Source: a virus
Taxonomy: Duplodnaviria; Heunggongvirae; Uroviricota; Caudoviricetes
IMG/VR virus record: IMGVR_UViG_2711768166_000010
Strand: one strand, 5' to 3'
DNA: 4,492 nt
Positions 1,232 to 4,492 of this stretch are shown one piece after another (within the stretch, counting starts at the first letter, position 1; each line of letters opens with the position of its first letter). Made by a program: the position numbers and the translations under genes. The notes under the pieces are model-generated. The model saw only the letters and a program-made list of their open reading frames with translations. It did no database searches and was not told the origin of the DNA.

Positions 1232-1240
1232 TGTCGGGAT

Positions 1241-1258
1241 GCCGCCCGAAAGGGCGGT
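1241..1258 (+). other. GC-rich stem-loop with GAAA tetraloop directly after the 70-aa gene; no clear U-tract
   Basis: gCCGCCC-gaaa-GGGCGGt: 6 G:C pairs plus a closing G-U, GNRA-type loop. Followed by taataaaaatgg (A-rich, not T-rich), so it is not a canonical intrinsic terminator. Confidence 0.35.
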
Positions 1259-1293
1259 AATAAAAATGGCTGAACTAATCGGAGAACAAAACG

Positions 1294-1703: not shown

Positions 1704-2324
1704 ATGGCTTTTACCGACAAAGAAATGATTAAAGAAATCAAAGAACGTATCAGCAGCCTGGACGTACGAGACAATATTGAGCGCCGGGCTTATGAAATAG
1801 CGTTAGCCTCGCTGGAAGCTGAACCGGTGGCATGGCAGGTCACAATCACAAAAGACGGTCAGGACTCAGCCTCTACTATTTACCGTGACTGTGCAGAGAA
1901 AGATACATGGGTTCGGATACATGAGACACTTGGTTCTGTCGTACACGTCACTCCGCTTTACATGGCACCGCCAGCGCCGGTAATACAGGCTGATGTCGCG
2001 CAGGCAATTGAAAATCTCAAGCAGAAGTTAGTGGAATGCAATCGCTATAACTACTGCGCAGATGCAGTTAAAGGCGTAGAGGATGCTTGCCGCGCCACCA
2101 TGCTTCACGGTGTCAAACCTGTAAGCCAGACTTACAAGTTGAACAAGCTGTTTGGCAACTCTCCGGTAACTCCGGATGGTTGGGTTATGGTTCCTAAACA
2201 GGTAACGCCGGAAATCAGCAACGCGATAAACGTTGTGGGTCAACGCTGTACATGCGGAAATTGCTCTCAGCGGTTGTGGGATTTATTACTCGACGCCACA
2301 CAGCAAGGGGTTAACCGTGGCTAA
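1704..2324 (+). CDS. Hypothetical protein (206 aa) with a Cys-rich C-terminal half, possibly metal-binding
   Basis: ATG at 1704 preceded by AAGGA (1691-1695). Long clean frame. Cys clusters C-x5-C-x10-C (ECNRYNYCADAVKGVEDAC) and C-x-C-x2-C (CTCGNC). Stop TAA 2322-2324 overlaps the start of the next gene. Confidence 0.7.
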   Translation: MAFTDKEMIKEIKERISSLDVRDNIERRAYEIALASLEAEPVAWQVTITKDGQDSASTIYRDCAEKDTWVRIHETLGSVVHVTPLYMAPPAPVIQADVAQAIENLKQKLVECNRYNYCADAVKGVEDACRATMLHGVKPVSQTYKLNKLFGNSPVTPDGWVMVPKQVTPEISNAINVVGQRCTCGNCSQRLWDLLLDATQQGVNRG

Positions 2325-2601: not shown

Positions 2602-2603
2602 CA

Positions 2604-2630
2604 ATCCTCGCACTCGCGGGGATTTCTTTT
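2604..2630 (+). terminator. Rho-independent terminator 1 (8-bp GC-rich stem, ACTC loop, T-tract)
   Basis: ATCCTCGC-actc-GCGGGGAT (2604-2623; one G-U, rest Watson-Crick) followed by TTCTTTT (2624-2630), starting 3 nt after the ASCH gene stop. Confidence 0.6.
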
Positions 2631-2634
2631 ATCT

Positions 2635-2660
2635 GAACTCGCTACGGCGAGTTTTGTTTT
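2635..2660 (+). terminator. Rho-independent terminator 2 (7-8 bp stem, TACG loop, T-tract)
   Basis: (g)AACTCGC-tacg-GCGAGTT (2636-2653) followed by TTGTTTT (to 2660). Lies immediately upstream of the RBS GGAGA (2663-2667) of the next gene. Confidence 0.55.
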
Positions 2661-2673
2661 ATGGAGACAAGAA

Positions 2674-3018
2674 ATGTCAGATTTGGCTATGAAGGTTTTG
2701 AAATGGCAATCGACTGGCGATGTTGGCATCAGTAGCGCAACTCTTGCCTCAATCGCATGTGGACTGAAAAAGAATATCTATGGTCATCACTTCGGTGCTC
2801 CACATGACGCAGCCGATTTCCGACGATGCGTTGCGCTTGTCGAGCAGATTCCAGAAATCAGGGATTCATTCGACAAGGTTGCAAAGCGCGTTCCGGCATT
2901 CAAAGGAATCCTCAACGAATGGGATTCCCTCGTTGCTCTGTTGAAGTCTGAAATGAAGATACACGGAAACAAAGCACCAGAGACTTACAGGAGAATCAGC
3001 GAGTTACGAAAGGACTAA
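2674..3018 (+). CDS. Hypothetical protein (114 aa), isolated gene between the terminators and xis
   Basis: ATG at 2674 preceded by GGAGA (2663-2667) at 6-nt spacing. Clean 114-codon frame to TAA 3016-3018. No motif I can assign to a family. Confidence 0.7.
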   Translation: MSDLAMKVLKWQSTGDVGISSATLASIACGLKKNIYGHHFGAPHDAADFRRCVALVEQIPEIRDSFDKVAKRVPAFKGILNEWDSLVALLKSEMKIHGNKAPETYRRISELRKD

Positions 3019-3020
3019 CC

Positions 3021-3053
3021 ACAGTCTCACACTCGATGAGGACTGTTCATTTT
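3021..3053 (+). terminator. Weak terminator-like hairpin downstream of the 114-aa gene
   Basis: ACAGTC (3021-3026) pairs with GACTGT (3041-3046) across a long 14-nt loop, followed by TCATTTTT. The large loop and short stem make this low confidence. Confidence 0.25.
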
Positions 3054-3107
3054 TCAAGATATCCAGACCTACCGCAATAATACCAACTCAATAAATGGAG
3101 ATTCCAG

Positions 3108-3455
3108 GTGGAAGAAGAAATCTTCACTCGTGAAGAGGCAGCGTCGTATCTGAAGGTAGACAAAGGCACTATCACGCAGTGGATACGAAGTGGACGACTT
3201 CAGGCCGCAAAGATAAATCCAGATAAACCTAAAAGCCCATATCGCATTTGCAAGTCAGACTGCATTGCGGCGCTTAAGTCTGTGAGACACAATAGCGCGG
3301 TGAATGCGGTTGATGTGCAGGAGGTTAAAGCATGTCAATCAAACTACGCGGTGGCACGTGGCACTGCGATTTCGTCGCGCCAGATGGATCAAGAGTTAGA
3401 CGCTCTCTTGAAACATCGGACAAGAGGCAAGCGCAAGAACTTCACGATCGTCTGA
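3108..3455 (+). CDS. xis: Excisionase / AlpA-like helix-turn-helix DNA-binding protein (recombination directionality factor)
   Basis: GTG at 3108 preceded by GGAGA (3097-3101) at 6-nt spacing. N-terminal FTREEAASYLKVDKGTITQWIRSGRLQAAKI is a typical excisionase-type HTH. Sits immediately upstream of, and overlaps, the integrase gene. The 115-codon frame runs 124 nt into int, so the true C-terminus is uncertain. Confidence 0.7.
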   Translation: MEEEIFTREEAASYLKVDKGTITQWIRSGRLQAAKINPDKPKSPYRICKSDCIAALKSVRHNSAVNAVDVQEVKACQSNYAVARGTAISSRQMDQELDALLKHRTRGKRKNFTIV

Positions 3456-4492
3456 AAGCAGAAGCGTGGAGAGTAAAAAATCTCGGAGAATCACCGAAAA
3501 AGCTATTCAAGGAAGCCTGCATACGGTGGCTGCGTGAGAAATCGGATAAGAAGTCCATTGATGATGACAAGAGCATTATATCGTTCTGGATGTTGCACTT
3601 CAGAGAAACCATTCTCTCTGACATAACAACAGAAAAAATAATGGAGGCGGTAGACGGGATGGAAAACCGCCGCCATCGCCTGAACTGGGAAATGAGCCGG
3701 GACAGGTGTTTGCGGCTTGGCAAGCCAGTGCCGGAGTATAAACCAAAGCTGGCAAGCAAAGGAACGAAGACGCGGCATCTGGCAATACTTCGCGCTATTC
3801 TCAATATGGCTGTTGAATGGGGATGGATTGACAGGGCACCCAAAATATCAACACCACGCGTTAAGAATGGACGAATCAGATGGCTTACAGAGGAGGAATC
3901 GAAGCGCCTGTTTGCAGAAATTGCTCCTCATTTCTTCCCTGTGGTCATGTTTGCAATCACGACAGGCCTTCGCCGTTCCAACGTTACAGACCTTGAGTGG
4001 TCACAGGTCGATCTGGATAAGAAAATGGCATGGATGCACCCTGATGAAACAAAAGCTGGCAATGCGATCGGAGTTCCTCTTAACGAAACTGCATGCCAGA
4101 TATTAAGAAAACAGCAGGGTCTCCATAAGAGATGGGTATTTGTCCACACCAAACCTGCCTACCGAAGCGACGGAACAAAAACAGCAGCGGTAAGGAAGAT
4201 GAGAACCGACAGCAACAAGGCATGGAAGGGAGCGTTAAAGCGGGCAGGCATTAGCAACTTCCGCTTCCATGACCTGAGGCATACTTGGGCAAGCTGGCTG
4301 GTTCAGTCCGGTGTCTCTCTTCTCGCACTTAAAGAGATGGGAGGATGGGAAACTCTCGAAATGGTTCAAAGATATGCCCACCTTTCAGCCGGGCATCTCA
4401 CCGAGCACGCGAGCAAAATCGATGCGATTATAAGTCGCAATGGCACAAATACGGCACAAGAGGAGAACGTAGTTTACTTAAATGCGAGGTAA
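3332..4492 (+). CDS. int: Tyrosine site-specific integrase (phage integrase family) with N-terminal arm-type DNA-binding domain
   Basis: ATG at 3332 preceded by GGAGG (3320-3324). N-terminus MSIKLRGGTWHCDFVAPDGSRVRRSLETSDKRQAQELHDRLKAEAW matches the arm-binding domain pattern of lambdoid integrases. C-terminal catalytic motifs are present: TGLRRSN (Arg), HDLRHTWASW (His-x-x-Arg) and EMVQRYAHL (Tyr nucleophile). Stop TAA is at 4490-4492, the window end. Confidence 0.95.
   Translation: MSIKLRGGTWHCDFVAPDGSRVRRSLETSDKRQAQELHDRLKAEAWRVKNLGESPKKLFKEACIRWLREKSDKKSIDDDKSIISFWMLHFRETILSDITTEKIMEAVDGMENRRHRLNWEMSRDRCLRLGKPVPEYKPKLASKGTKTRHLAILRAILNMAVEWGWIDRAPKISTPRVKNGRIRWLTEEESKRLFAEIAPHFFPVVMFAITTGLRRSNVTDLEWSQVDLDKKMAWMHPDETKAGNAIGVPLNETACQILRKQQGLHKRWVFVHTKPAYRSDGTKTAAVRKMRTDSNKAWKGALKRAGISNFRFHDLRHTWASWLVQSGVSLLALKEMGGWETLEMVQRYAHLSAGHLTEHASKIDAIISRNGTNTAQEENVVYLNAR

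Follow-up and report, generated by a model that had tools for sequence, protein, structure and literature searches.

The closest described counterparts of the locus studied here are found in the lambdoid phages 434 and HK022. The GenBank record of phage 434 (M60848; protein AAA67902) is annotated in the order t-L4, ORF55, ORF114, t'-I, xis, int, where tL4 is a GC-rich stem-loop followed by a U-run, and the complete record of HK022 names the corresponding gene HK022_32, with the note 'N15 early protein homolog'. ORF114 and the terminator upstream of it are therefore already known, having long been annotated in the GenBank records of both phages; a search of the literature on ORF114 and tL4 found nothing relevant.

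Morons of lambdoid phages are extra genes, provided with their own promoter and terminator, that are inserted between genes adjacent in relatives. An earlier note on the present DNA had proposed such an origin for a 114-aa ORF located directly upstream of xis, which it described as insulated between terminator hairpins and as a candidate for lysogenic conversion, exclusion or defence. Our data show that ORF114 is a lambdoid accessory gene of an ordinary kind, already annotated before and only partly moron-like. Judging from its layout and its relatives, it is probably the most distal accessory gene carried as cargo by the leftward early (pL) operon of a lambdoid prophage, conserved but dispensable, adjoining xis-int, read through together with them and non-autonomous.

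The prophage end and the terminators upstream of ORF114

The window, i.e. the whole stretch of 4,492 nt that was analysed, was identical to positions 4254214-4258705 (minus strand) of NZ_CP104503.1, from the poultry isolate E. coli strain E1. It corresponds to the att-proximal end of a lambdoid prophage, and the site is the tRNA-Thr gene adjoining proA (thrW). All genes lie on one strand; starting near the repressor, they include cIII, kil, recT, an ea22-like gene, an ASCH-like gene, ORF114, xis and, at the end, int. The first gene after the repressor displayed a weak match to an N peptide (PF25694, E = 8e-4, under the Pfam cut-off), and a boxA-like sequence (GCTCTTTAACA) as well as a boxB-like hairpin were present upstream of this N-like gene. 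Taken together, gene order and these N-like, boxA and boxB elements correspond to what is usual for a pL operon under N antitermination. The features considered below are as follows:

2603..2634, + strand: hp1, first predicted intrinsic terminator, with a 9-bp GC-rich stem (AATCCTCGC/GCGGGGATT) and the tail TCTTTTATCT (terminator scan, fold, alignment)
2635..2664, + strand: hp2, second predicted intrinsic terminator, with an 8-bp stem (GAACTCGC/GCGAGTTT), a UACG tetraloop and the tail TGTTTTATGG (scan, fold)
2655..2673, + strand: deletion junction and translation initiation region, TTTTGTTTTATGGAGACAAGAA, including GGAG at 2663-2666 (alignment, upstream variants in 80 IMG/VR loci)
2674..3018, + strand: ORF114, encoding a basic, all-alpha protein of 114 aa; ATG start; member of phrog_1229, with N15 gp42 as a distant relative
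3020..3094, + strand: stub of a P22-type xis pseudogene, of which 3020-3075 represent codons 4-22 (HSLTLDEDCSFFKISRPTA) (translation, tblastn, DNA alignment)
3108..3455, + strand: functional xis (HTH_17, phrog_2907; mEp213/SfX type), with the Shine-Dalgarno sequence GGAG at 3097-3100 and a GTG start at 3108
3332..4492, + strand: tyrosine integrase gene, overlapping xis by 124 nt

The 114-aa ORF at 2674-3018 proved to be real, starting with ATG behind the Shine-Dalgarno sequence GGAG at 2663-2666. Its product shared 97-100% amino acid identity with ORF114 of 434, gp32 of HK022, mEp213_026 and the copy of mEp043. Furthermore, the phrog_1229 profile covered residues 1-114 (E = 7e-52), the function label of this PHROG being 'unknown'. 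The previous statement that no recognisable family motif is present was thus right for Pfam, NCBIfam, PADLOC and PDB sequences, but not with regard to this full-length match. The gene had also been presented as the only one without translational coupling to a neighbour, which is wrong: ORF 1019-1231 has flanking gaps of 45 and 62 nt, and owing to the second of these gaps the ORF at 1294 is equally uncoupled from its upstream neighbour.

The 72-nt intergenic stretch upstream of ORF114 is filled by hp1 and hp2. The stem of hp1 spans 2603-2624 and begins 1 nt past the stop codon of the ASCH-like gene, that of hp2 spans 2635-2654, and both are of ordinary length (8-9 bp). Two terminator hairpins had been proposed at 2604-2660, and this was borne out, as both were called by the terminator scan and their joint fold (-27.1 kcal/mol, z = -4.7) was matched by none of 200 shuffles. 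The only Rfam match over the window was at noise level (Leu_leader, minus strand over the terminators, E = 0.6). In the records of 434 (M60848) and HK022 (X51962), hp1 aligned with the tL4 feature. On these grounds, hp1 and hp2 are convincing predicted intrinsic terminators, the first being homologous to the annotated tL4.

The order of hairpins and genes was compared with that of other phages. The hp1-hp2 pair is also present in lambda, and in lambda, 434, HK022 and mEp213 hp2 stands before ORF55, not before ORF114. The order in 434, HK022 and mEp213 is hp1, hp2, ORF55, a third hairpin (CCGCC-TGA-TGGCGG+T7) and ORF114; that in lambda is ea8.5, hp1, hp2, orf55, the third hairpin and xis, ORF114 being absent. 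Relative to 434, HK022 and mEp213, the window carries a clean deletion of ~195 bp which took ORF55 and the third hairpin (CCGCCTGATGGCGG+T7), and whose junction falls in the short repeat TTTTAT(T)GGAGA, present before both ORF55 and ORF114. The second terminator of the window therefore normally fronts ORF55. In the P22-like Salmonella phage SF3, hp2 was near-unchanged, although the ORF114 homologue is only 63% identical there. As for hp1, it was replaced in some relatives by non-homologous hairpins with the same position and the same T-tail. Other E. coli prophages likewise have unrelated hairpins with T-runs at the equivalent position, as do Cronobacter phage ENT47670 and Mannheimia phage 3927AP1.

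A remnant of a P22-type xis gene downstream of ORF114

The spacer of 89 nt between ORF114 and xis (GTG at 3108), as given in the earlier note, was confirmed, and comparison with P22-like phages showed how it was composed. P22 Xis is an HTH_17 excisionase of 116 aa, to which the functional Xis of the window is a full-length relative (42% identity), and it is codons 4-22 of the P22 xis gene that are matched by the stub. The translation of 3020-3094 reads HSLTLDEDCSFFKISRPTAIIPTQ and ends with a stop codon. In tblastn, the stub peptide MESHSLTLDEACSFLKISRPT matched residues 1-21 of P22 Xis with 95% identity, and further matches were found in SfV, SfII and many P22-like phages. Past 3075, the frame of the stub continues through unrelated sequence to a TAA at 3092-3094. 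Intact junctions read eaC-TAA-AC-ATG-xis in P22 and ORF114 homologue-TAA-CC-ATG-xis, then int, in SF3. A DNA alignment with P22, SF3, L082 and 434 revealed a deletion of 10 nt in the window, 434 and HK022, by which the ATG of xis is removed. The stub retains 19 homologous codons, ends after 24 codons and has neither a start codon nor a full-length HTH_17 frame; it is homologous to xis, but as a relic and not as a functional excisionase gene. The 89-nt spacer accordingly consists of the decapitated 5' end of an old xis gene and of the leader of its replacement.

This relic also accounts for the 'weak terminator-like hairpin' that had been placed at 3021-3053 and taken as the downstream boundary of the gene. 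A hairpin does exist at 3021-3046, followed by a T5 run at 3050-3054 within the stub, but it is no terminator. Its fold (-8.2 kcal/mol, z = -0.7) was equalled by 41 of the 200 shuffles, and it was left uncalled by the terminator scan of the window; neither scan nor fold yielded any terminator between ORF114 and xis. The hairpin consists of the codons S-L-T-L-D-E-A, which also lie inside the functional xis genes of P22 and SF3, so that it has been conserved by descent as coding sequence and not as a terminator. The case is a warning that remnants of coding sequences can be mistaken for regulatory hairpins.

Within the stub, the core CCTCACACTCGATGAGG followed by CCTGTTCATTTCTCAAGATATCCAGACCTACC was conserved in 80 IMG/VR loci containing ORF114, with variation on both flanks. 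Homology to other genomes stops at about 3050 or 3073, i.e. inside the stub, and the simplest reading of these breakpoints is an exchange of xis-int modules by recombination in the conserved 5' end of xis. In this respect, the relic points to a swapping of lambdoid integration modules within the first ~20 codons of xis. Two further elements located downstream of ORF114 in other phages could be assigned to xis leaders. The t'I hairpin (GCCGCATCAATGCGGC+T) of the 434 and HK022 records belongs to the leader of lambda-type xis and is absent from the window. Similarly, GGTTCGATTCC, found downstream of the gene in some relatives, was considered as a fragment of a tRNA gene or att site and rejected, being the leader of TorI-type xis.

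The slot before xis and the transcription of its cargo

It had been suggested that the slot upstream of xis be compared among related prophages, and this comparison did reveal different cargo between the same flanks. The slot is empty in lambda, where orf55 is joined directly to xis; it holds ORF55 and ORF114 in 434, HK022 and mEp213, ORF114 alone in the window and eaC in P22. ETEC1717 carries an unannotated ORF of 71 aa with a full-length match to phrog_15342, found in 69 E. coli genomes in all. In this case the slot is bounded by the T-run of the third hairpin and by the xis stub, and the same xis follows.

The distribution of ORF114 itself was broad. Megablast retrieved the segment from 321 phage records, among them those of 434, HK022, mEp043 and mEp213 and of Stx and Salmonella phages. 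Among 5,426 complete E. coli genomes, roughly 900 contained a near-identical copy. For the window's xis-int module, coverage of at least 80% was obtained in 120 complete E. coli genomes; ORF114 was contiguous with xis of this type in 74 genomes, and one further genome had undergone a large deletion of which only the 3' end of ORF114 remains. Over 81 loci with ORF114 (at least 98% amino acid identity), no fewer than 31 different contexts were counted upstream of the gene and no fewer than six xis/int modules downstream, in 52 combinations. The modules paired with it include those with lambda Xis, those of the TorI and mEp213 types, and a 63-aa HTH gene. The gene was exactly 345 nt long, with an intact frame, in 80 of 80 loci, where it was always directly followed by the xis/int block and directly preceded by a hairpin with a T-run. 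Invariant presence together with synteny with xis had been regarded as evidence against a moron: synteny with xis/int was found in every close relative examined, but presence was not invariant.

These observations are best described by an exchangeable cassette at a fixed slot. The cassette may have spread by homologous recombination at short conserved flanks. The left flank would be formed by the terminator together with the ribosome-binding site, the right one by the conserved first ~20 codons of xis.

The layout also suggests how such cargo may be expressed. Processive antitermination is able to bypass ordinary intrinsic terminators, as was shown for a Gram-positive plasmid system (PMC10325885). 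Transcription from pL would be made termination-resistant by an N/nut-type system, and ORF114 would be transcribed only then. This would make it a delayed-early gene, sharing its read-through RNA with xis and int. As long as the prophage is repressed, the pair of terminators may bar stray transcription from the whole ORF114-xis-int block.

An alternative is that ORF114 is a true moron, i.e. an autonomous unit transcribed in the repressed prophage and serving the lysogen in conversion, exclusion or defence. Several traits are in agreement with this view. Compared with lambda, ORF114 is extra DNA at an intergenic hairpin; its slot takes alternative cargo; it possesses a strong ribosome-binding site of its own; and many prophages that otherwise differ have a near-identical copy of it. 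In addition, Vibrio phage K67 has its homologue isolated among the tail genes and encoded on the strand opposite to theirs, a classic position for a moron. However, autonomy is not apparent. A scan of the window for sigma-70-like promoters, which was consensus-based and whose reach does not extend to non-canonical or activator-dependent promoters, returned none near 2600-2673; its only site (1139-1168) compares with 5.5 expected by chance. Moreover, the T-tail of hp2 runs into the Shine-Dalgarno sequence of ORF114, which leaves no space for a promoter between the terminators and the ATG. The resulting order is terminator, gene, xis, int instead of promoter, gene, terminator, and what had been read as the downstream boundary is the weak hairpin of the xis fossil. 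The ancestral distance between ORF114 and xis, as preserved in SF3, is 2 nt, which argues for co-transcription and against insulation. Base composition was not atypical either, the GC content of ORF114 being 0.470 (GC3 0.487) for a window mean of 0.467. Finally, no defence family was recognised: ORF114 was without a match in PADLOC-DB at E <= 1, and only scattered hits (E about 0.01-0.06) were obtained with 46 family members. Some homologues are also part of early arrays in phages where no integrase is close by. An insulated, autonomous layout is not supported, and a true moron is unlikely; what survives of that proposal is swappable cargo at a fixed slot.

The ORF114 protein family and its contexts

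A profile search against 1.84 billion representatives retrieved 2,793 proteins at E <= 1e-3, 621 of them at E <= 1e-10. Most of these family members are stand-alone proteins of 105-135 aa, and all are named 'hypothetical' in their source databases. An alignment of 46 sequences (30-77% identity) displayed eight invariant residues (W11, S20, P43, D45, D48, R51, C52 and W83) and the motif P-x-D-P-x-D-F/L-x-R-C. The AlphaFold2 model of ORF114 consists of seven helices (pLDDT 93, pTM 0.86). Searches of Pfam, NCBIfam, PADLOC and PDB sequences, with the single query or the profile, gave no hit indicative of a function, and no fold or sequence relative of known function was found.

The label 'lipoprotein', borne by one Stx-phage record, was rejected: the N-terminus is not signal-peptide-like, Cys29 of the apparent lipobox is replaced by Leu in many of the relatives, and a helix covers residues 19-28. 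Among 42 longer family members, no Pfam domain was found on the extensions except in P0171, a continuous ORF of 558 aa in which a complete CCA-adding enzyme is followed by a C-terminal ORF114 domain; as a single case, it is only a lead. Near-identical chimeras with Erf, Kil, Ea22 or PF04447 were set aside as probable deletion fusions in decaying prophages.

It could be argued that ORF114 is a neutral passenger that hitch-hikes between recombination linkers, and that its conserved flanks are what count. Flanking hairpins and xis stub are indeed conserved as much as ORF114 or more, and breakpoints cluster there. The constant 345-nt frame, the invariant residues and the confident model nevertheless imply purifying selection on the protein, in a family of ~2,800 cluster representatives whose members reach down to 30% identity. 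A mere passenger thus seems very improbable.

More distant homologues were found in a variety of contexts. In Cronobacter phage ENT47670 (58% identity), the terminator directly upstream has a UUCG loop and is unrelated to those of the window, and the homologue is followed by excisionase and integrase. Mannheimia phage 3927AP1 (33%) has a terminator with a 12-bp stem directly upstream and a weaker one downstream, then a small gene and the integrase. At the metagenomic prophage locus L116 (39%), the integrase is located two small genes downstream. No upstream terminator was present at the distant loci L114, L115 and L116, one of them in a Mu-like Vibrio prophage, and the idea that this terminator is a feature of the whole family was consequently rejected: the terminator gate characterises the enterobacterial/Pasteurellaceae lambdoid lineage, and adjacency to xis-int is a feature of the same lineage. 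Elsewhere, the homologue ends the early array of Salmonella phage Solent, which is apparently integrase-less; it has a Lar-like gene nearby in 60-kb Vibrio phages, also apparently integrase-less; and it lies beside orphan DNA methyltransferases in Pseudomonas megaplasmids. The common denominator of these contexts is an early accessory gene array. A wider genome scan for loci of the family gave three loci only.

The constant neighbourhood in the lambdoid lineage raises the question of whether ORF114 is an accessory of site-specific recombination, for example a modulator of the activity, stability or timing of Xis/Int. It stands directly before xis/int whatever the integrase type (at least six modules), the position is kept in SF3 (63%), ENT47670 (58%), L116 (39%) and the Mannheimia phage (33%), and in the lambdoid lineage a single terminator-gated block is common to ORF114 and xis-int. 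Such a role is nonetheless doubtful, since ORF114 is missing from lambda and P22 as well as from about half of the prophages that have this very xis-int module, and since the gene is paired with excisionases as unrelated as lambda Xis, TorI and the P22-type HTH_17 protein. Homologues also occur with no tyrosine integrase nearby (N15, the Mu-like prophage, Solent, a megaplasmid), and the same position would be expected of any cargo located distally in the pL operon.

Under the preferred reading of ORF114 as read-through cargo of the pL operon, its product may be a small helical protein that is produced in the early phase of infection or induction and that binds and modulates a factor of the host or of a defence system. 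This suggestion, which is tentative, is based on where relatives occur: in megaplasmids, and in the early accessory arrays of phages that are temperate, Mu-like, N15-like or apparently without an integrase. If a ranking has to be guessed, early binding of a host or defence target comes first, as a possibility short of probable, a role with Xis/Int comes second and is unlikely, and defence expressed by the prophage comes last as less likely again. That the family forms a new class of early effectors countering host defence or repair, with a possible link to tRNA 3' ends or nucleotidyltransferases, is a speculative extension to which we attach little probability. The interest of the locus resides mainly in the size of the family and its complete lack of annotation, the sequence feature itself mattering little; a large unannotated family with a confident helical model and no PDB match is a reasonable candidate for functional screening, Stx phages included.

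Compared with known systems, the copies of 434, HK022 and mEp213 are most similar to that of the window, having the same length, the same ribosome-binding site and the same place before xis-int and downstream of tL4. They differ by the presence of ORF55 and a hairpin between tL4 and ORF114, both missing from the window, and the xis-int module of the window is of the mEp213 type, not of the lambda type. With morons, ORF114 shares its presence or absence among otherwise collinear genomes, its location at a terminator-hairpin boundary and a slot that accepts alternative cargo; unlike them, it has no promoter or terminator of its own and no compositional anomaly. At a greater distance, the ORF114 domain is found in gp42 of the linear-plasmid prophage N15, within the early operon (hmmsearch E = 2e-18), and in the early region of a Mu-like prophage of Vibrio. 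These relatives differ from ORF114 in being longer or in having other neighbours, with xis-int not nearby and an identity of ~30%.

A remnant of xis and probable exchange of the integration module

Downstream of the 114-aa ORF (ORF114), two features involve xis:

Window 3020-3094: P22-type xis stub, a 5' part without start codon, immediately 5' of the functional xis
Window 3332-3455: overlap of xis and int, 124 nt, in different frames

The int start annotated in RefSeq lies at window 3338, six bases downstream of the start taken here. In 434, HK022, HK97 and many prophages the same P22-type stub likewise lies upstream of the xis gene, whether this is of the lambda type, the TorI type or another. 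The occurrence of one P22-type stub ahead of such differing xis types implies that integration modules have been swapped repeatedly, through recombination within the first ~20 codons of xis. P22 shows the same kind of overlap, its xis and int likewise being out of frame with each other.

The ORF114 slot and its upstream hairpins

The site between the upstream hairpin and xis can also host another gene:

L007:2265-2480 (E. coli ETEC1717, NZ_CP122876.1): 71-aa ORF, phrog_15342, in the ORF114 slot

A full-length match to phrog_15342 (E = 2e-51) was obtained for this ORF, which is without RefSeq annotation in ETEC1717. Among complete E. coli genomes, 69 have such a 71-aa phrog_15342 ORF in the slot.

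Two stretches that flank the second hairpin (hp2) are 83% complementary to each other: the U-rich tail of hp1, the first terminator hairpin (ATTTCTTTTATC, 2622-2633), and the Shine-Dalgarno/start region of ORF114 (GAGACAAGAAAT, 2664-2675). When the 434 sequence is folded, hp2 is enclosed by the corresponding pairing. Such pairing could block the ORF114 ribosome-binding site on read-through RNA.

Other genes and hairpins

Three further features were recorded, the last of them in strain E1 prophage DNA upstream of the window (L004):

Window 1236-1262: GC-rich hairpin GCCGCCC-GAAA-GGGCGG, in the 62-nt gap between ORF 1019-1231 and ORF 1294-1482
Window 1704-2324: 206-aa ORF, split in RefSeq into a partial pseudogene (1704-1826) and a separate CDS (1827-2324)
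L004:181-230: nutL-like element, boxA GCTCTTTAACA followed by hairpin TCCCGCCGAAATGCGGGA

The GC-rich hairpin was not called in the terminator scan of the window because it has no T-run. ORF 1019-1231 shows the same lack of coupling to adjacent genes as ORF114. Separate parts of the 206-aa ORF matched several different PHROGs (phrog_5117, phrog_60, phrog_14306 and others), which suggests a mosaic fusion gene. The nutL-like element precedes a 99-aa gene whose N-peptide match is weak.

ORF114 relatives in other contexts

Two homologues were found in distinct settings:

L006:37-1713 (metagenome contig from SRR30503383): P0171, CCA-adding enzyme with a C-terminal ORF114-family domain, one continuous ORF
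L111:2372-2830 (Vibrio phage K67): 152-aa homologue, alone on the opposite strand, between tape-measure and other tail genes

The enzyme part of P0171, a single instance of this fusion, is complete, with PolyA_pol head, RNA-binding and HD domains. A copy of ORF114 at 100% identity was observed in Shimwellia pseudoproteus, and another (97% identity) on a 3.3-kb contig (JAJXBQ010000292.1) of a MAG labelled Segatella copri, a label that is probably a binning error for enterobacterial prophage DNA. The Vibrio phage K67 homologue occupies a classic moron-like position, from which that of ORF114 in the window differs.
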